Shown in pieces: positions 1,969 to 44,682 of a DNA stretch of 44,682 bases. Position 1 is the stretch's first letter. Each line of letters opens with the position of its first letter. Source of the stretch: a phage; sequence record PX123008.1; one strand, 5' to 3'. The notes under the pieces were generated by a model. The model was not told where the DNA came from, ran no database searches, and was given only the letters and a program-made list of their open reading frames with translations. The position numbers and the translations under genes were made by a program.

Positions 1969-3489
1969 ATGACCGTTAACGTTGACAACCAGCACCCACT
2001 TTATGCGCGCATCGCGCCAGAGTGGAAAATGATCCGTGATTGTGTAGCAGGGGAGCGCGCCGTGAAGGCGTGCGGCCCTTTGTACCTGCCTCATCCCGCC
2101 AGTGGCGACAATACTGACCCGAAAGCACGGGCGCGGTATAAGGCGTACAAGCAACGCGCTGTATTCCTGAACGCCACCGCCCGCACACTTAACGCGCTGT
2201 TAGGCGTCGCCTTTGCTAAACCGGTAAGTCTGGACCTTTCCGGGGCGATGGCTGACCTGATTGACGACGTTGACGGCAGCGGTATGCCTCTGCCGCAACT
2301 CCTGCGCGGTGCAATGTCGGAAGTTCTGCAATCGGGCCGCGCAGGCTTTATGGTGGACTACGACCGCCAGGCCCACTTTGATGAACTGGGTAATGTAGTG
2401 CCGCAGACCGCCGCCGAGATGGCTACACACCGCCCGCTTATCCGCCTGTATACGGCAGAGCAGATCATCAACTGGCGGCAGACCCACGGTGTTGACACGC
2501 TAATCGTGCTGAAGGAAACGGACGAAATCAGCACCGAAGACCCGGACGACTTCGCAAACCACGAAGTAACCATCTGGACCGAGCTTCGCATGATTAACGG
2601 TGCGGCACACGCCCGCCGCTGGTTTTATAACGCCGACACGTCCGAGGTGCAAATGGACTTGCCGCGTGGATTTACCCGCACCGACCTTGTGCCGCTGGTG
2701 GATGCTGCCGGTAAAGCGCTGACACAGCTTCCGTTTTGCTGGTGTGGCGCGGTGGACAACAACGCAACGCCTGACGCCGCTCCGCTGGCGGATATTGCGT
2801 CCATCAACATTAAGCACTACAACGCCGAAGCGGACGTCGCCGAGATCGCGCACATCGTGGGCCAGCCTACCCTGGTTGCGACGGGCTTGACTCAATCATG
2901 GGCTGACAAGAACCTGAAGGGAGGCATTGCCCTCGGTGCGACTAAGGGCGTTATTCTGGGTCAGAACATGGACGCTAAACTGATTCAGGCGGAGGAGCGC
3001 AACTTGTCGGTTGCACTGTGTGAGCGTCGCGAATTGCAAATGGCTAAACTGGGCGCGGCCCTGGTTGAGAAGGGGACTGCACCTAAGACGGCAACCGAAG
3101 CGGCCTACGATGCGCAGACTGATAACAGTATCCTGTCGCTTATTGCCGGTAACGTTGAGAAGGCTTTCAACCGTGCGCTGCAAATCGTCCAGCTATTCAC
3201 GGGCGACACCGCCGACCAGCGTGTGACGCTGAATAAGTTCTACACCGAAATCACGGTTGATGCGCAGCTTATGACCGCGATGATGTCGGGTGTGCAGACG
3301 GGTACGGTCCGACTGGCTGACTTTATCAAGTGGATGATGGCGCAGGGCGTCATCGACGACTCGCAAACCGTCGAGCAGGTGGAAGACGAATTGCGAAATC
3401 AGAATCCATTGCCTCAAATGTCCCCTGATGCGGTAGAATCTACCGAAGAAGACCCGGACAAGGTAGCGGACAATGGCGAAGACAATTAA
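1969..3489 (+). CDS. portal protein
   Basis: 506 aa directly after TerL with AAGGA RBS; acidic C-terminal tail; size and position typical of portal. Confidence 0.8.
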   Translation: MTVNVDNQHPLYARIAPEWKMIRDCVAGERAVKACGPLYLPHPASGDNTDPKARARYKAYKQRAVFLNATARTLNALLGVAFAKPVSLDLSGAMADLIDDVDGSGMPLPQLLRGAMSEVLQSGRAGFMVDYDRQAHFDELGNVVPQTAAEMATHRPLIRLYTAEQIINWRQTHGVDTLIVLKETDEISTEDPDDFANHEVTIWTELRMINGAAHARRWFYNADTSEVQMDLPRGFTRTDLVPLVDAAGKALTQLPFCWCGAVDNNATPDAAPLADIASINIKHYNAEADVAEIAHIVGQPTLVATGLTQSWADKNLKGGIALGATKGVILGQNMDAKLIQAEERNLSVALCERRELQMAKLGAALVEKGTAPKTATEAAYDAQTDNSILSLIAGNVEKAFNRALQIVQLFTGDTADQRVTLNKFYTEITVDAQLMTAMMSGVQTGTVRLADFIKWMMAQGVIDDSQTVEQVEDELRNQNPLPQMSPDAVESTEEDPDKVADNGEDN

Positions 3490-4576
3490 TCAATATATGG
3501 CGGATCGAATGATTCGCCGTCACATCTTCACCCAGCGCCTGAGCAATGACCAGGCGCGTAGGGTGCTGGCTATGTGGGAGAAGTTCCGGCCCACGTTACT
3601 GGGTAAGCTGACCGAGTTACTTGATGGCAGAAAGTCCATGAACAACAAGGCACTTACCACTCTGTTAACGCAACTCGACAAGACCGTTAAATCAGAACTG
3701 CGCACCGAGTTTAAGGCGCTGGCAGAAAGCCTTCAGGAGTTCGCCGACACGGAGGCTGATTATCTTGCTGACACACTAACGGCAGCGATCCAGCCCGCGG
3801 TCGCCGTACCTGCTGTTGAGGTGGTGGGCGTAGTGACCGGCGCGCAGATCGCAGCGACGGCTATGAAAAACCCGTTCCAGGGTAACACCATGATGCAGTG
3901 GCCCGATTCACTTTCCGAGTGGACCAGGACGCAGATCGGCAATCAGGTGCGCGCCGGATTCATCCAGGGCAAGCCGACGATGGAAATTATTGCGGACGTG
4001 AGGCGCGCGCTAGGCGGTCGTAGTGCGCAAGCAATATCAAGCGTTGTTAAGTCCGCGGTCAACCACTATGCGGCGACCGCCCGCGAATTAATGGTAAAAG
4101 CTAATGACGATATTCTCGAAGGTCGCCAATGGTTGGCTACATTGGACACGCATACTTCTCCCATGTGCCAGCTACGCGATCGCCTGTTTTATCCGGTTGA
4201 TGTTACTCCCGACACAAAAGGGAAGCGCGGCGGAAAAGTGGTGGCGGGATCACAATATGGCGCTGGTCCGGGCAAGCTGCATTATTGCTGCCGTTCGACG
4301 GAGACGTGGAAAGTCAAAGGTATGGAATATTGGCCCAGTGGTAAGCGTCCGGCACTGAAGGCTGACGCAGGCAGATTGCTGAGTGAGCAGGTCGACGCGC
4401 AGACTGATTTCTTCTCATGGGTGCAGCGCCAGCCGCGCCATATCCTGGAAGAATTATACGGGGTGCAACGAGCCGACCAGATTATGCGAGGCGTGAAAGT
4501 GCCGAAGATGTTCACCGATACGGGCGAACTAATGACTATTGCGCAGCTTAAAAACAGGGGGCTATGGCGTGATTAA
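3473..4576 (+). CDS. head morphogenesis protein (Mu gpF / SPP1 gp7-like minor head protein)
   Basis: 367 aa overlapping the portal 3' end; conserved position after portal; assignment from memory. Confidence 0.6.
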   Translation: MAKTINQYMADRMIRRHIFTQRLSNDQARRVLAMWEKFRPTLLGKLTELLDGRKSMNNKALTTLLTQLDKTVKSELRTEFKALAESLQEFADTEADYLADTLTAAIQPAVAVPAVEVVGVVTGAQIAATAMKNPFQGNTMMQWPDSLSEWTRTQIGNQVRAGFIQGKPTMEIIADVRRALGGRSAQAISSVVKSAVNHYAATARELMVKANDDILEGRQWLATLDTHTSPMCQLRDRLFYPVDVTPDTKGKRGGKVVAGSQYGAGPGKLHYCCRSTETWKVKGMEYWPSGKRPALKADAGRLLSEQVDAQTDFFSWVQRQPRHILEELYGVQRADQIMRGVKVPKMFTDTGELMTIAQLKNRGLWRD

Positions 4577-4877
4577 ATACGCGGCGATCGGATTGGTAAT
4601 AGGTCTGGCGGTTGGATTCTGGCAGGGTGATTCCTACCGCACTGGCGTTGAGGCGAGAGCGGCGCAAGAAGCGCAAGCGAAAGCCCAACGGCAGCAAACT
4701 AAGGTTGTCGAGGGGGCAGTGCAGGCCGAACAGGCCCGCGATGTGGAATACCGGACTATCACGAAAGAGGTTGTGAAATATGTTACGCGTCCTAACCGTC
4801 CTGATTGCAGTTTTGATGCTGAGCGCGTGCGGATCAAGCAAAGCGCCATTGATGCCGCTAACCGAGTCGGTCTATAG
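4569..4877 (+). CDS. i-spanin (Rz-like)
   Basis: GTG start with AGGGGG RBS; N-terminal TM segment (IKYAAIGLVIGLAVGFW) followed by a charged coiled-coil-like periplasmic domain; fully overlaps the o-spanin ORF in another frame. Confidence 0.55.
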   Translation: MIKYAAIGLVIGLAVGFWQGDSYRTGVEARAAQEAQAKAQRQQTKVVEGAVQAEQARDVEYRTITKEVVKYVTRPNRPDCSFDAERVRIKQSAIDAANRVGL

Positions 4878-5010
4878 ACCTCCTTGCACCTTTGAGAATG
4901 CCTCGGCAGATCCAGACGAAGACTTGCTGGTTGATGTTAAGAATATGGAGTGTGGTGCTAAGCTAAGGGCGCAAGTGCTGGAGTTGCAGAAAATAATTCG
5001 GGGGCTGTGA
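4780..5010 (+). CDS. o-spanin (Rz1-like outer-membrane lipoprotein)
   Basis: 76 aa; signal peptide with lipobox LSAC; proline-rich mature part; starts inside the i-spanin ORF in the +1 frame. Confidence 0.6.
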   Translation: MLRVLTVLIAVLMLSACGSSKAPLMPLTESVYRPPCTFENASADPDEDLLVDVKNMECGAKLRAQVLELQKIIRGL

Positions 5011-5025
5011 TGGCCCCCTTTTTTG
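5000..5025 (+). terminator. rho-independent terminator
   Basis: GGGGGC-tgtgatg-GCCCCC hairpin followed by TTTTTT; the o-spanin stop codon lies in the loop. Confidence 0.65.
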
Positions 5026-5295
5026 TTAGCGCGGAATGCCGCAAATCTCGTTTAACGTCTTCACGTCCAGCGCCACCGCCGTGGACTTCGGCTTGTCCGG
5101 GTAGGGAATGAACTGTTCCACTTCAGGCCACGCCTTGATCAGCTTCTTATCGGTATTGTGCAAATCCAGCACGCCGGTAACTGTTAGTTTGAACGCGTCA
5201 TACTTCGCACGCAAATCGCGGCGGGCCTTGTCGTTACGGTCCAGGCGCTTACAGAAGTCGTGGTCCGCCGGGTAGTCTATACGACCGCGTGGCAT
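5026..5295 (-). CDS. hypothetical protein; possibly the C-terminal part of the upstream ORF, see (AT)5 finding
   Basis: ORF MPRGRIDYPADHDF...; frame junction with ORF 5277..5792 coincides with an (AT)5 tract. Confidence 0.4.
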   Translation of the reverse strand: MPRGRIDYPADHDFCKRLDRNDKARRDLRAKYDAFKLTVTGVLDLHNTDKKLIKAWPEVEQFIPYPDKPKSTAVALDVKTLNEICGIPR

Positions 5296-5792
5296 ATATA
5301 TATCGGCAGCGCTTTCCCGTCGTCGTCGACTTCGCACACTGACGCTAACAAAATTTCCTCATACCCTGGCACAATATCGCCGAGATCGGGAGACAGTTTA
5401 TTCATGTATTTATACTCCCAGTATCCGCGATGTGCTCGGAATCGGTGTCCGTCTCCGCTCAATGACACGGTACGGACGTTTCCGCCTGCGTTGATTTCGA
5501 AAGTGGCGTCGTAAACGCTGCCTATACCATATGGGTTGTCGGCGTCATGTCTATACGTCGCCTTATTGGTGTACACACAGACGCCGTATATCTGCGACGG
5601 GTCATTGCCGATTGCATAAATGCGCTCACGTAGCTCGGCGAACGTATGAATGCCTTCCGGCATACAGTCCAGCGTAATGGCGTACGCCAGATTTCGAGAG
5701 TCCATCATGATTGATTTGGCTTCGGTCGCGATTTCGTGGTCGCGCAGGATGTTAGCCAGAATCTGGTTTTTAATGTCTTTCGTCAGTCTCAT
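5277..5792 (-). CDS. hypothetical protein
   Basis: 171 aa, ATG with GAGGA RBS 8 nt upstream; no recognisable motif. Confidence 0.5.
   Translation of the reverse strand: MRLTKDIKNQILANILRDHEIATEAKSIMMDSRNLAYAITLDCMPEGIHTFAELRERIYAIGNDPSQIYGVCVYTNKATYRHDADNPYGIGSVYDATFEINAGGNVRTVSLSGDGHRFRAHRGYWEYKYMNKLSPDLGDIVPGYEEILLASVCEVDDDGKALPIYICHAVV
5294..5303. repeat. (AT)5 dinucleotide tract at the junction of two ORFs
   Basis: atatatatat read directly; removing one AT unit would fuse ORF 5277..5792 to ORF 5026..5295 in frame. Confidence 0.9.
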
Positions 5793-5874
5793 TTTTGTGT
5801 CCTCGTTGTTGGGGCTTTCGCCCCTGTTGGTTTAGTTAAACTTGATGTTGCCGCCAATAGGCTGCTTTTGTTAG

Positions 5875-6393
5875 CTACAAACGCATCGGCATGATAACAA
5901 GGAAGGCACCGCCTTTGAACAGCACACGTGTCGCCTTGTCTACTCCCTGAAATTCCAGTTTTAAGCTATCAAACTTACGGTCGAACAATTTAGCAATTTT
6001 GCAGGCGTCGGACAGGTATGCCCCGGCAAACCCTATAGCCTCCACTTTAGCGCTGTCAAAAGACGTAACTCTACGCCAGTCTGGGAATCGGCCGTCTATG
6101 ATCTCTACGGGTATGGTACCGATTAATACGTCTTTACTATCAAAGAACGCAGCGGAGGTGCCGTCTATGTTGCAATATTCGAATTTAGTAGGTAAGCGTC
6201 CTTTAATTGCTACTATTTTACTTTCACCTTCGGGAACAACCGCGGACCCGCAGAACAAGCGATGACCGTCGGTGGCCACAATGAATCCTTTCTCGTCGAA
6301 AAATACACCGTTCAGATAGTATCGCACGTCATTAGTTGCGGCGCACATCATAGCGGCTTTAAGATCAGCATAGTTAACTTTAATCATTGTCAT
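5875..6393 (-). CDS. truncated beta sliding clamp (DnaN domain II-III) homologue
   Basis: 173 aa from ATG with GAGGA RBS; motifs DVRYYLNGVFF, VATDGHRL, DGRFPDWRRV and C-terminal VIMPMRL match E. coli DnaN residues ~145-366 as recalled; no domain I. Confidence 0.7.
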   Translation of the reverse strand: MTMIKVNYADLKAAMMCAATNDVRYYLNGVFFDEKGFIVATDGHRLFCGSAVVPEGESKIVAIKGRLPTKFEYCNIDGTSAAFFDSKDVLIGTIPVEIIDGRFPDWRRVTSFDSAKVEAIGFAGAYLSDACKIAKLFDRKFDSLKLEFQGVDKATRVLFKGGAFLVIMPMRL

Positions 6394-6416
6394 TTCCTCG
6401 TTGTTGGAGTGCAACC

Positions 6417-6446
6417 AATATAGTGCAACCAATACGAGGATTGCAA
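6417..6446 (-). promoter_or_regulatory. sigma70-like promoter (TTGCAA-N18-TATATT) for the clamp-like gene, with ATTGGTTGCAC motif copies
   Basis: hexamers read directly on the minus strand; downstream leader GGTTGCACTCCAACAACGAGGA then ATG at 6393. Confidence 0.5.
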
Positions 6447-6453
6447 GCGAATT

Positions 6454-6481
6454 TTGCGATTATTTTTATCGCTGATAATAT
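6454..6481 (+). promoter_or_regulatory. putative sigma70-like promoter for the scaffold/capsid operon (TTGCGA-N16-TAATAT)
   Basis: hexamer matches read directly ~55 nt upstream of the scaffold start. Confidence 0.35.
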
Positions 6482-6536
6482 TAGAAGCGTGAAGTCGAGC
6501 GGGTGGCCTGCTCTGCCACAATCCCAGGGGGATAGC

Positions 6537-10051: not shown

Positions 10052-10473
10052 TGAGCAATACTCTAATCCGCAAGGCGCTTAACCGCGTTGTCGAAGAATT
10101 ATCGGTAAGCCTGAGCACTAACCCGCGCCCGATAAAGGTTAACTGGGAGAACGTGAGCGGCGACCACGCAAACGGCAGCGGTGTCTACCTAGAACCATAT
10201 CTGCTTCCGGCCCCTACCCAGTTTGTGGGCTTCCAGCAGAAGGGCCGGATCTATGCAGGCGTGTATCAGATTGCCGTGGTATTTCCTGCGGGCACGGGCA
10301 CACAGTATGCGAGCGAACTGGCGGACGCCATTGCGACGTCAGACAAGTGGCAGGCCGTAAGGCTTACCGGCGCTGCATTCCAGCTTCAGGACGCGCCATA
10401 CACCAGTTCAGTGATTGAGGATGTTGACCGCGCCCGCATCGTGGTTACAGTGCCCTATTCCTGTTGTGCCTGA
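10051..10473 (+). CDS. tail terminator / tail completion protein (tentative)
   Basis: 140 aa, start overlaps the previous stop (ATGA); immediately upstream of the major tail protein gene. Confidence 0.45.
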   Translation: MSNTLIRKALNRVVEELSVSLSTNPRPIKVNWENVSGDHANGSGVYLEPYLLPAPTQFVGFQQKGRIYAGVYQIAVVFPAGTGTQYASELADAIATSDKWQAVRLTGAAFQLQDAPYTSSVIEDVDRARIVVTVPYSCCA

Positions 10474-21918: not shown

Positions 21919-22200
21919 CTACCCCCAATACGTATATATAAATCTTGATTCGCCAGCGTTAAAGCCGCTCCAGGAGACAGTGTTGTCGCTTACGGATATC
22001 GATGGCGCACCCCATGATGTGCCGCTCCAGGTATGCGTACCAACGTAACCTGCCTTTAAACTTTTCCCCGGCGGACGGTTGTGATACGTCTTGCTCCCGG
22101 ATGGTTGTGTGAATTTGTCAAGAAAAAAAACCGGCGTTAACAGGCCGGTGACGTCACGGCCATGTTCGTCATAAATCGCGTACCCATAGTTACTCACTTT
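21919..22200 (-). CDS. hypothetical ORF, doubtful (contains a terminator)
   Basis: open frame with only GTG/TTG starts; a hairpin plus T8 terminator lies inside it. Confidence 0.2.
   Translation of the reverse strand, partial: KVSNYGYAIYDEHGRDVTGLLTPVFFLDKFTQPSGSKTYHNRPPGKSLKAGYVGTHTWSGTSWGAPSISVSDNTVSWSGFNAGESRFIYTYWG
22105..22134 (-). terminator. rho-independent terminator downstream of the lipoprotein gene
   Basis: minus-strand ACCGGC-ctgttaac-GCCGGT followed by TTTTTTTT. Confidence 0.6.
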
Positions 22201-22459
22201 TACACTCCACAATTTCAAATTTATCTTCGCTTTGCCATCTGTGAACGAAAGTTACAAATTTCTGTGATGGGGCTACCCGGTATTGTTTTTCGCCAAATCG
22301 GTTTTCACGCACCGCGTTTAGTTTAACAGGGTAGCTATCGTTTACGGGGAATGTTTTAACTACATATTGGCCTGTGCAATTAATGGCCTTGTAGTTGCCG
22401 TCTGGTGACGCGGAGCAACCGGACAAAAGAACCGCACAAATCATAATTAAAGTTTTCAT
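22190..22459 (-). CDS. small lipoprotein, candidate Cor/Llp-like superinfection-exclusion protein
   Basis: 89 aa, AGGAG RBS; signal peptide with lipobox LSGC; two further cysteines; sits between the J-like and tail-fibre genes. Confidence 0.55.
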   Translation of the reverse strand: MKTLIMICAVLLSGCSASPDGNYKAINCTGQYVVKTFPVNDSYPVKLNAVRENRFGEKQYRVAPSQKFVTFVHRWQSEDKFEIVECKSE

Positions 22460-41094: not shown

Positions 41095-41231
41095 GTGCGA
41101 CGATCCGTGATATGCTGATGCACAACCGCTTTGAGATAGGCGGTCGTGTGTTCCGCAATTACTTCGTGGCGCGAGCCTGGGCGCGCCATATTGGCAAACC
41201 AGAGGGGGCAATACGATGCTACACGATTTGA
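41091..41231 (+). CDS. small ORF (46 aa), doubtful
   Basis: ATGA overlap with the upstream stop; overlaps the next gene start. Confidence 0.3.
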   Translation: MSATIRDMLMHNRFEIGGRVFRNYFVARAWARHIGKPEGAIRCYTI

Positions 41232-41503
41232 TTTATTGGTTTGGATTGGGGTGCGCGACACTCTTTGTTACTGTGCTGGCGCTGTTGGTATGGGTGTTCC
41301 TGATTTGGCCCGCGGTGGAAGCCGCCAGCATTACCCGCATGACGTTTCAGATATACAAGCGCCGTGGCATCACTGAGCACCCTACCAGGTTGCGCATGTG
41401 GTGGCTATGGTATCGGGATATGATAGGGGGCAGGATGTTCGAGGCCGTCCGATCGGAAGGGTGGGAGTGGAAAGGCGTCGGCAAGTGGTCCATTTTCGAT
41501 TAA
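41216..41503 (+). CDS. small membrane protein
   Basis: 95 aa, GAGGGGG RBS; N-terminal TM segment (YWFGLGCATLFVTVLALLVWVFLIW). Confidence 0.45.
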   Translation: MLHDLIYWFGLGCATLFVTVLALLVWVFLIWPAVEAASITRMTFQIYKRRGITEHPTRLRMWWLWYRDMIGGRMFEAVRSEGWEWKGVGKWSIFD

Positions 41504-41520: not shown

Positions 41521-41555
41521 AGTCCCAGTGAGATAAAACTTACTGGGACTTTTTT
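41521..41555 (+). terminator. hairpin plus T6 immediately upstream of the holin start
   Basis: AGTCCCAGT-gagataaaactt-ACTGGGACT followed by TTTTTT, then ATG at 41556. Confidence 0.5.
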
Positions 41556-41846
41556 ATGGATAAGCTAAACGAGTGGTTATTTGCCATCGCATGTCTGGCT
41601 GGCGGCTTCGTAGGCGCACGCATTCATGGCGAGGCAACGAAAGGGCCGTTGAACTTCGTTTTATATATCGTGGTTGGCTTCCTGTGTGCCATATTTGGTG
41701 CGCCAGCTATCGCCGAGTGGTCTGGTTTGTCCGGCGAGCGCACTGTCGCCGGTTTGGGCTTCGTAACTGCCATCTTCTGGATGCCAATCGCCGATCGGAT
41801 CAGGGAGACTATTGCGTCGTTCCGACTTCCGGGGGGTGCAAAATGA
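41556..41846 (+). CDS. holin (class I-like, three predicted TM segments)
   Basis: 96 aa with three hydrophobic segments and a charged C-terminus; first gene of the lysis cassette. Confidence 0.6.
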   Translation: MDKLNEWLFAIACLAGGFVGARIHGEATKGPLNFVLYIVVGFLCAIFGAPAIAEWSGLSGERTVAGLGFVTAIFWMPIADRIRETIASFRLPGGAK

Positions 41847-42088
41847 TTATCACCGTCCTGTTGTTTGTTATCATAGGGGCTTCGTCCCTGTTTAACGTGT
41901 ATGCGCCGTCCGTTCAGGATGGCATTTTAGGCCGGGTGTTATATCTGCTAACGGCGATGATCTGCGTTATCGGATTGTTGCAAACAGGAGACGTATCTGA
42001 CACCACCTGGACCGCGTTAATCTGGCTGTTTGCATTGCGCACGCTGCGTAATGCTGTTTTAAATGGGGTAAAACATGCGATTCAGTGA
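41843..42088 (+). CDS. second holin-like membrane protein (holin/antiholin or pinholin candidate)
   Basis: 81 aa, GGGGGG RBS, two hydrophobic segments; ATGA overlap with the holin and overlap with the endolysin start. Confidence 0.5.
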   Translation: MIITVLLFVIIGASSLFNVYAPSVQDGILGRVLYLLTAMICVIGLLQTGDVSDTTWTALIWLFALRTLRNAVLNGVKHAIQ

Positions 42089-42566
42089 CAACGGTCTAAG
42101 ATTTACGGCAGCATGGGAGACTTTCAGCCCAGTGCCGTATTTCGCGACTAAGAAAGAGCAGGCCCGCGGCCTGTACACCTGGGGATATGGTCACACCGGC
42201 ACTAACCCGCCTCGAAGCATTACCCGCGCGGAAGCGCTGGAGCTACTTAAGCGCGATGTGGCGTATGCTGAGGACTGGGTGAATAAATACGCACATCCCA
42301 GCATCAACCAGGCGCAATTCGACGCGCTGGTGGACCTGGTAATCAATGCAGGTCCGGGTCCGATTGTACCGGATAACGTTGCCAATGACTTCGATGATGC
42401 GGTGCGCCTGGGTGACTGGGCGAAGGTCCGTGCTACTCTGCCACAGTTCCGCAAGCAAGGTGGGGAAGTGCTGAAGGGGTTAGTCCGTCGAGCAATCGGC
42501 AGGCAGGCGCTATTCGATGGTAAGCAGTGGGACGTTGCCGAGAAGATCGGACGTAACGCAGCATAA
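42075..42566 (+). CDS. endolysin, GH24 lysozyme family
   Basis: 163 aa; FSDNGLRF...WETFSPVPY...YTWGYGHTG and QAQFDALVDLVINAG match the phage lysozyme pattern from memory. Confidence 0.85.
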   Translation: MRFSDNGLRFTAAWETFSPVPYFATKKEQARGLYTWGYGHTGTNPPRSITRAEALELLKRDVAYAEDWVNKYAHPSINQAQFDALVDLVINAGPGPIVPDNVANDFDDAVRLGDWAKVRATLPQFRKQGGEVLKGLVRRAIGRQALFDGKQWDVAEKIGRNAA

Positions 42567-42582
42567 TACGGGGTAACACAGT

Positions 42583-42996
42583 ATGTTAAAAAGTATTCTT
42601 GATCATAACGCCGACGCGCTCGCCGCGCTGGCTAAAACCAAAGACCCAGGCGCACGCGCTATTGTAGCGGATACGATCAGCCATGCGGGGGTCTTCGACG
42701 CGAAGTTACCCAGCCCGCCGGAAAGTAAGCCGGTGACAAGTGCAACCGTAACTATCACACCGGAATCCGCCGCAGTTGGTGCGAAGGCCACCGCTTCGGT
42801 TGCGGTACAGCCATCCGACGCAACTAACAAGGCCGGGTCGTGGGTGTCGTCGAATCCTGCCTGCGCGGCAATCGATCAGACTACCGGAGAAATCACAGCC
42901 CAAACGGAAGGTAGCGCCCACATCTTTTGGGTGGCATCCGACGGCAGCGGGGTGCTAGCGTCCGCCATCTTCACCGTAACGGGGGCAGAAGAATAA
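42583..42996 (+). CDS. bacterial Ig-like (Big_2-type) domain protein
   Basis: 137 aa; C-terminal ~80 aa resemble a Big_2 fold (TVTITPESAAVGAKATASVAV...SWVSSNPACAAIDQTTGEITAQTEGSAHI). Confidence 0.55.
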   Translation: MLKSILDHNADALAALAKTKDPGARAIVADTISHAGVFDAKLPSPPESKPVTSATVTITPESAAVGAKATASVAVQPSDATNKAGSWVSSNPACAAIDQTTGEITAQTEGSAHIFWVASDGSGVLASAIFTVTGAEE

Positions 42997-43003
42997 AACC
43001 ACA

Positions 43004-43028
43004 AGCCCGGTTAATTCCGGGCTTTTTA
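43004..43028 (+). terminator. rho-independent terminator after the Ig-like gene
   Basis: AGCCCGG-ttaatt-CCGGGCT followed by TTTTT. Confidence 0.65.
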
Positions 43029-44593: not shown

Positions 44594-44619
44594 AGCCCAC
44601 CGATTTGGTGGGCTTTTTT
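44594..44619 (+). terminator. rho-independent terminator
   Basis: GCCCACC-gattt-GGTGGGC followed by TTTTTT. Confidence 0.65.
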
Positions 44620-44682
44620 GTGCCTGTTATAATCCCCTTAGATGGCAGGGCCGTCTCTTATGTTGCCGATGGTCGGCGCATA

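Follow-up and report, generated by a model that had tools for sequence, protein, structure and literature searches.

In the head-gene module of the phage genome deposited as PX123008.1, two short, overlapping reading frames follow the head morphogenesis gene. The question that they raise is whether they encode the spanins of this phage, how such proteins would act at a distance from the holin and endolysin genes, and with which genes they would be transcribed. The window referred to below is the whole stretch of DNA that was analysed, 44,682 nucleotides in length. We think it very probable that the window is a Dhillonvirus genome in which 4569..5010 encodes an overlapped two-component spanin of the 'Jersey' family, that these genes would be expressed as part of a transcription unit starting ahead of the small terminase gene (terS), and that their products would fuse the two membranes of the host once the cell wall has been destroyed.

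Using positions 3400-6500 of the window as a megablast query, matches were obtained in 158 phage records, nearly all from Escherichia or Shigella phages of the genus Dhillonvirus (HK578-like siphophages), and in 128 of these the query coverage was at least 80%. None of the records was identical to the window in this region, the best match being about 96%. Judged from its sequence matches, PX123008.1 is the complete genome of a Dhillonvirus, an HK578-like virulent Escherichia coli siphophage. terS begins 20 nt into the window, which is the same cut as in the GeorgBuechner and EP23 records. The WF5505 record is cut at another point, and in it the last and first bases of the window are contiguous; we therefore take the window to be a complete genome with arbitrarily cut ends. 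The original prediction, which was made from the letters of this DNA, had placed the spanins and the other lysis genes apart from each other across the genome ends. This is an artefact of the cut point of the record, as the WF5505 map is continuous there.

The locus is made up of the following features.

3473..4576, plus strand: head morphogenesis gene (SPP1 gp7/Mu F-like; phrog_241, E = 1.7e-116)
4555..4576, plus strand: junction of the head morphogenesis and i-spanin genes, with a stop/start overlap and a Shine-Dalgarno-like GGGGG
4569..4877, plus strand: predicted i-spanin gene, 102 aa (ORF, sequence, phrog_2536 and the GeorgBuechner annotation at the same position)
4780..4877, plus strand: dual-coding overlap of 98 nt, encoding the i-spanin C-terminus and the o-spanin signal peptide (diversity by codon position)
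4780..5010, plus strand: predicted o-spanin gene, 76 aa (ORF, sequence, phrog_5672, phrog_1267 and the GeorgBuechner annotation)
5000-5018, between the o-spanin and Nmad5 genes: terminator-like hairpin followed by TTTTTT (-15.2 kcal/mol, z = -2.6)

An Rz1-like lipoprotein in the +1 frame, right after the head morphogenesis gene, had been proposed here, and the coordinates proved to be exact. The head morphogenesis gene lies directly upstream of the i-spanin gene, and the i-spanin GTG start at 4569 overlaps its stop codon by 8 nt (GTGATTAA); the GGGGG stands 8 nt before the GTG, and this junction is kept in every Dhillonvirus locus examined. The i-spanin stop codon ends at 4877, while the o-spanin frame opens with an ATG at 4780 and its stop codon ends at 5010. 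With 4569 mod 3 = 0 and 4780 mod 3 = 1, the o-spanin gene is in the +1 frame of the i-spanin gene. It starts inside 4569..4877 and extends past this interval to 5010, and the pair thus has the 'overlapped' architecture and not the lambda-type 'embedded' one. On the other side, the minus-strand Nmad5 gene is convergent with the o-spanin gene, and the G+C-rich hairpin at 5000-5018, which carries the o-spanin stop codon in its loop, lies between the two. The i-spanin of PX123008.1 is the 102-aa variant and not the 109-aa one, and the overlap accordingly measures 98 nt rather than 119 nt.

The two predicted proteins have the features of a two-component spanin. The i-spanin begins with MIKYAAIGLVIGLAVGFWQG, followed by a charged region rich in Ala, Gln and Glu. 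Its hydrophobic segment covers approximately residues 4-20 (top 15-residue Kyte-Doolittle mean 2.05), and a single periplasmic Cys is found at position 80. In an AlphaFold2 model the protein forms helices at residues 5-72 and 84-99 with a linker at 73-83, and it is thus predicted to consist of one transmembrane domain, at the N-terminus, and a periplasmic domain that is largely alpha-helical, as is typical of i-spanins. The o-spanin begins with MLRVLTVLIAVLMLSAC and continues with GSS; it has the lipobox LSAC with the lipidation site at Cys17, followed by Gly-Ser, and this lipoprotein signal has Gly and not Asp at the +2 position. Since Asp is absent from +2, the o-spanin is predicted to be sorted to the outer membrane. 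Its middle part is Pro-rich, and in the model this stretch is unstructured and flanked by helices at residues 2-16 (the signal) and 50-75 (the C-terminal helix). Both models were made from single sequences and are of low confidence (pLDDT 59 for the i-spanin and 57 for the o-spanin), and they were used for secondary structure only. The o-spanin has two further Cys residues in its periplasmic part, at positions 36 and 58, and these as well as Cys80 of the i-spanin are kept in all Dhillonvirus loci. Periplasmic cysteines for intermolecular disulfide bonds are near-universal in two-component spanins (Kongari et al., 2018; PMC6139136).

In profile searches the i-spanin matched phrog_2536 (E = 5.7e-35) and the o-spanin matched phrog_5672 (2e-25) and phrog_1267 (2.4e-12), all of which are 'Rz-like spanin' families. 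Both proteins are 87-99% identical to their counterparts in other Dhillonviruses, the genes of which have been annotated or catalogued as spanins. In GeorgBuechner (BASEL Bas16) these two genes have identical relative coordinates and are annotated as i-spanin and o-spanin, and in the RefSeq record of EP23 the two genes are annotated as Rz-like spanins; compared with EP23, identity is approximately 87-88% for the i-spanin and 80% for the o-spanin. EP23, HK578, JL1, SSL-2009a, SO-1 and EK99P-1 have been placed, with both components, in the overlapped 'Jersey' family of spanins (Kongari et al., 2018; PMC6139136), and the pair in PX123008.1 resembles listed members of this family in both components. 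Using tblastn, homologues of the i-spanin were found in 611 phage records and homologues of the o-spanin in 646, mostly in phages of Salmonella (Jerseyvirus) and Escherichia (Dhillonvirus and Kagunavirus). Even with the Jerseyvirus Shelanagig, where identity is 39% for the i-spanin (E = 3e-14) and 46% for the o-spanin (E = 2e-19), the Cys residues are aligned. Together with the protein features described above, these matches support the prediction that 4569..5010 encodes a two-component spanin pair.

Neither ORF is long, and in several deposited genomes (e.g. WF5505) at least one of the two is unannotated or 'hypothetical', which might suggest that one or both are chance reading frames. This was examined in a set of 18 Dhillonvirus sequences, 17 of them distinct. 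Both frames are open in all 18 genomes, with the GTG and the ATG start kept, the Shine-Dalgarno sequence conserved and the i-spanin ORF intact throughout, and the lipobox, as L[ST]AC, and all Cys residues are likewise present in every one. In the part that encodes only the i-spanin, nucleotide diversity is 0.077 at codon position 1, 0.038 at position 2 and 0.215 at position 3 (0.110 overall), and in the part that encodes only the o-spanin the corresponding values are 0.085, 0.044 and 0.247 (0.126 overall). In each non-overlapping part, diversity at third codon positions thus exceeds that at the other two positions 3- to 6-fold, and each single-coding part is under purifying selection in its own frame in these 18 genomes. 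Dual coding predicts a lower diversity in the overlap, with which the overall mean of 0.076 found there agrees; the most variable site in the overlap is position 3 of the i-spanin frame, which is position 2 of the o-spanin frame. With homologues at 39-46% identity across three genera in addition, we attach practically no credence to chance reading frames, an explanation that is refuted by this conservation pattern.

The remaining lysis genes lie elsewhere in the genome. These genes, and the one other lipoprotein gene of relevance here, are as follows.

41556..41846, plus strand: holin gene (phrog_2359, 1e-31)
41843..42088, plus strand: second holin-like gene (phrog_2508, 2e-26)
42075..42566, plus strand: endolysin gene (phrog_7, 8e-36)
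22190..22459, minus strand: gene for a Cor-like superinfection-exclusion lipoprotein (phrog_1119), beside the tail fibre gene

The holin, second holin-like and endolysin genes had been assigned to 41556..42566, and all three are borne out by their PHROG matches. The same holds for the distance of about 6.7 kb from the endolysin gene to the i-spanin gene on the same strand (44682 - 42566 + 4569). This interval had been described as holding the terminase and portal genes, and both are indeed there, but four further genes also intervene: in order, the interval comprises an Ig-domain ORF, an exonuclease-like gene, a 70-aa ORF, terS, the large terminase gene (terL), the portal gene and the head morphogenesis gene. 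In a canonical lysis cassette the spanin genes immediately follow the endolysin gene. Here no spanin gene is found beside the endolysin gene, the ORF after it encoding the Ig-domain protein; this is a matter of gene order and not of spanin identity. Apart from the pair at 4569..5010, the genome has no candidate spanin. A genome-wide lipobox scan returned no spanin candidate besides the o-spanin, the sole other lipobox ORF being the Cor-like gene. A unimolecular spanin or an alternative spanin pair elsewhere in the genome is excluded by the ORF and genome-wide lipobox scans.

The position of the pair among head genes could also be taken to mean that it is not a spanin at all, and that a membrane protein and a lipoprotein serve here in superinfection exclusion, in the manner of T5 Llp or Cor, or as accessory factors in head assembly. 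We found no genetic or biochemical test of the 'Jersey' spanin family in the literature, and to our knowledge no member has been tested in this way, which leaves some room for such a function. The domain databases do so as well. Scanning both proteins against Pfam gave no Rz or Rz1 family at E <= 1, and the NCBIfam scan gave nothing at threshold, with P2_Rz1 (NF038368, P2 LysC) scoring 14.5 bits (E = 0.03) where the cut-off is 27; otherwise there were weak matches to lipoprotein signals and LapA-like noise. As nothing in Pfam or NCBIfam is matched at threshold, what the pair shares with experimentally proven spanins is its architecture rather than a demonstrated homology. However, it is to spanin families that the PHROG profile matches lead, those of the 4780..5010 product included, and a separate gene, next to that of the tail fibre, encodes the Cor-like exclusion lipoprotein. 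A transmembrane protein and a lipoprotein that overlap in the +1 frame and carry conserved periplasmic cysteines are, moreover, the specific signature of two-component spanins (PMC6139136), and if the pair had another function the genome would have no means to breach the outer membrane. We therefore regard a non-spanin function as highly improbable.

With the spanin assignment preferred, the next point is how the two genes would be transcribed. The original prediction had them transcribed with the head genes rather than with the lysis cassette, and ending in a strong terminator. The hairpin with its T-run at 5000-5018 is present, and is kept in all 18 Dhillonvirus loci, but by its folding energy and z score it is moderate and not exceptionally strong. 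Further signals of interest are located on the far side of terS.

41521-41550, plus strand: terminator-like hairpin with a T-run, directly before the holin ATG
43003-43024, plus strand: terminator-like, G+C-rich hairpin with a T-run (z about -3.9)
44594-44614, plus strand: terminator-like, G+C-rich hairpin with a T-run (z about -3.9), upstream of terS
44625-44633, plus strand: extended -10 motif TGTTATAAT, just after the preceding hairpin and 70 nt before terS

In a sigma-70 consensus scan, neither the head morphogenesis and spanin genes themselves nor the DNA just ahead of them gave a plus-strand promoter. No other perfect extended -10 motif than TGTTATAAT occurs in the genome, and since about 0.8 such motifs are expected per genome by chance, it is its location alone that is telling. 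The layout of a terminator followed by an extended -10 motif upstream of terS is kept in WF5505, and in the divergent LM40P1 a terminator and TGATATAAT are found at the same place while the sequence of the stem has changed. We therefore propose 44594..44633 as a candidate start of a transcription unit that extends from terS to the o-spanin gene. Most likely, this unit would begin at a promoter just upstream of terS, continue through terS, terL, the portal, head morphogenesis, i-spanin and o-spanin genes and end at the 5000-5018 terminator. The spanin genes would then be its last two cistrons, and the i-spanin gene may be translationally coupled to the head morphogenesis gene. This unit is drawn from motif scans and its terminators may be leaky; transcription of the spanin genes with the packaging and head genes is plausible, and the 8-nt overlap of the i-spanin start with the upstream stop codon is in keeping with it.

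It is conceivable that the lysis cassette is instead entered by one long plus-strand transcript from further upstream, which passes the hairpins at 41521-41550, 43003-43024 and 44594-44614 without terminating and carries the holin, endolysin and spanin genes together, which would leave the genes and their function unchanged. From 36844 around to 5010 all genes share the plus strand, and the scan called no consensus sigma-70 promoter upstream of terS. In addition, 5 nt separate the holin ATG from the terminator-like hairpin before it, too few to hold a promoter; holin expression would thus need read-through of this hairpin, and if one hairpin is read through, the others could be as well. Against such a transcript, two G+C-rich hairpins with T-runs intervene between the endolysin gene and terS, the sole perfect extended -10 motif of the genome is placed between the second of these and terS, and this layout has been retained in a divergent relative although the stem itself has changed. 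We found no Dhillonvirus transcriptome in the literature. On balance we consider the long transcript unlikely and prefer a unit starting just upstream of terS.

The mode of action that we propose for the spanin pair is modelled on the lambda Rz/Rz1 and T4 PseT.3/PseT.2 proteins, for which the spanin mechanism has been summarized (PMC6139136). The N-terminal helix of the i-spanin would hold this protein in the inner membrane, with its mostly helical domain extending into the periplasm, and the o-spanin would receive its lipid at Cys17 and be sorted to the outer membrane. By analogy with the lambda and T4 proteins, the two would bind each other and form a disulfide-linked bridge that is threaded through the peptidoglycan mesh. 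In late infection such complexes might accumulate harmlessly, held in check by the intact peptidoglycan, until the holins and endolysin destroy the wall and the spanins fuse the inner and outer membranes as the last step of lysis. For this pair, complex formation, membrane fusion and the lysis phenotype are thus inferred by analogy, while its architecture, conservation and family membership are borne out by the sequences. As spanin activity would be gated by the destruction of the wall and not by synthesis, the genes would call for no separate timing signal, and neither linkage to nor co-regulation with the holin and endolysin genes would be required.

The spanin pair and its placement are not new, and have already been annotated and published. 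Synteny in related phages, which had been suggested as a check, is seen in GeorgBuechner and EP23, which have the pair at the same position, and in the Jerseyvirus Shelanagig and the Kagunavirus K1H, in which a homologous pair is also found in the head module, after the head morphogenesis and decoration genes and before the scaffold gene. Judged from gene order and sequence, the placement in the head module away from the holin and endolysin genes is inherited and conserved in Dhillonvirus, Jerseyvirus and Kagunavirus. A 2019 genome announcement, for Schulenberg (PMC6763661), already states that the spanin genes are separate from those of the holin and endolysin. In SeF1 the spanins are Gp_009/010, which have the same PHROGs as those of PX123008.1, while the holins and endolysin are Gp_063-065 (PMC9409062), and in the Dhillonvirus P78 the spanin is ORF40 as against ORFs 31-33 (PMC12677095). 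The pair studied here and the 'Jersey' family have in common the overlapped +1 architecture, the Cys pattern and the position after the head morphogenesis gene, and there is no difference of substance between them. The neighbourhood differs in that the Dhillonvirus pair lies directly between the head morphogenesis gene and cargo genes of the minus strand, whereas the Jerseyvirus and Kagunavirus pair lies between the decoration and scaffold genes.

Comparable arrangements are known from other phages. The T4 pair PseT.3/PseT.2 is likewise a two-component spanin unlinked to the holin and endolysin genes, t and e, and the T4 o-spanin, too, is rather long and has a helix predicted at its C-terminus as well as Cys residues in the periplasm that are essential (PMC6139136); however, the T4 genes are 'separated' and not overlapped, and we detected no sequence similarity to the PX123008.1 pair. 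In T7, the pair gp18.5/gp18.7 belongs to the DNA packaging module, where it has the small terminase gene on one side and the large terminase gene on the other, a long way from the lysozyme gene. It differs from the present pair in being 'embedded', with 18.7 entirely within 18.5, in lying 370 nt downstream of the holin gene 17.5, and in belonging to a podovirus system transcribed by T7 RNA polymerase. Lambda Rz/Rz1 also combine a type II inner-membrane protein with an outer-membrane lipoprotein that is read in the +1 frame, and membrane fusion presumably works alike in both systems. In lambda, however, the whole of the Rz1 gene is embedded in Rz, and both are part of the S-R-Rz lysis cassette; furthermore, the PX123008.1 i-spanin is much shorter, with 102 aa compared with the 153 aa of Rz.

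It could be asked whether the head-module position has itself been selected, such that spanin dosage would be tied to the output of virion assembly rather than to the holin clock, or such that the spanins would have a second role. Between genera the spanins have 39-46% identity, compared with 24% for the adjacent head morphogenesis protein, and this better conservation is at most a weak hint at a selected linkage. The idea also draws on the position at the 3' end of the proposed packaging and head-morphogenesis operon, on the probable translational coupling and on the fact that the position is kept across Dhillonvirus, Jerseyvirus and Kagunavirus. We consider it improbable.

Beyond correct annotation, the finding is of little importance. 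Several deposited Dhillonvirus records miss or truncate the o-spanin gene, and annotators should look for it at this position. The genome has a complete lysis system, consisting of two holins, an endolysin and a two-component spanin and split over two loci, both of which must be considered when lysis is to be altered in phage engineering. The separation repeats what is seen in T4, T7 and the Guernseyvirinae, namely that spanin genes can do without linkage to those for the holin and endolysin.

The i-spanin of Dhillonvirus is found in two forms that differ at the C-terminus, one of 102 aa (...ANRVGL) and one of 109 aa (...ANGVGTATAVQVR), and the extent of the overlap with the o-spanin gene tracks the form, being 98 nt with the 102 aa protein and 119 nt with the 109 aa protein. 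The variation maps to:

4857..4877: C-terminal variation of the i-spanin in the window, with the equivalent site in the RefSeq EP23 locus (L002) and in the further Dhillonvirus loci L008-L019

Public records disagree in the annotation of the o-spanin gene, and in many of them both spanin genes are labelled hypothetical. In the RefSeq EP23 record the 76 aa o-spanin ORF occupies 4836..5066, yet its annotated start is at 4908, resulting in a product of 52 aa without a signal peptide or lipobox. In WF5505 (L020) the o-spanin CDS is absent from the annotation, the ORF lying at about 10113..10343.

Spanin genes are usually viewed as fast evolving. When the window (3473..5010) was compared with the locus of the Jerseyvirus Shelanagig (L003, 4201..6518), the two spanins showed 39% and 46% identity between the genera, as against 24% for the neighbouring head morphogenesis protein. 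Stronger cross-genus conservation of the spanins than of the head morphogenesis protein is unusual for genes held to evolve fast, and it may be caused by horizontal exchange or by constraints of the host envelope.

Two genes on the minus strand are located downstream of the spanins:

5026..5792, minus strand: Nmad5-domain gene, split into a 171 aa ORF and a 103 aa ORF
5875..6432, minus strand: DNA polymerase III beta-like or 'RusA-like' gene, phrog_3007, 185 aa

The Nmad5-domain gene is broken by a 2-nt insertion at about 5293-5294, within a (TA)n run, and is whole in GeorgBuechner and EP23, where a single ORF encodes 254 aa; the split reflects a sequencing error or else a true frameshift or pseudogene. 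The phrog_3007 gene was found only in a subset of Dhillonviruses (EP23, CHD5UKE2 and WF5505) and is missing from most, for which the query coverage is 81%. In WF5505 the order of the two genes is swapped. The head module is thus divided in two by a variable cargo spot.

A further lipoprotein gene is flanked by a membrane-associated protein gene and a tail fibre gene:

22190..22459, minus strand: 89 aa lipoprotein (MKTLIMICAVLLSGC...) matching the Cor superinfection-exclusion family

Hairpins precede both the small terminase gene (terS) and the lysis cassette, which has a further gene on either side:

44594..44633: terminator-like hairpin, then extended -10 motif TGTTATAAT, 70 nt before terS
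41216..41503: membrane protein gene, 95 aa, phrog_2531, just 5' of the holin hairpin
within 41521..41558: very stable 12 bp hairpin (-24.1 kcal/mol, z = -7.5), then a T-run
42583..42996: Ig-like-domain protein gene, 137 aa, directly 3' of the endolysin gene

The motif upstream of terS is the sole perfect extended -10 motif of the genome, and this layout is kept in the divergent Dhillonvirus LM40P1 despite a different stem sequence. At the site of the Ig-like-domain gene, WF5505 has only a 55 aa ORF. The holin ATG (41556) lies just 5 nt 3' of the 12 bp hairpin, and the likely holin Shine-Dalgarno sequence (GGGA) falls within the 3' arm. WF5505 conserves this hairpin, and LM40P1 retains it through compensatory changes in the stem. 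Its effect could be to attenuate transcription that enters the lysis cassette, to hold down translation of the holin, or to do both.
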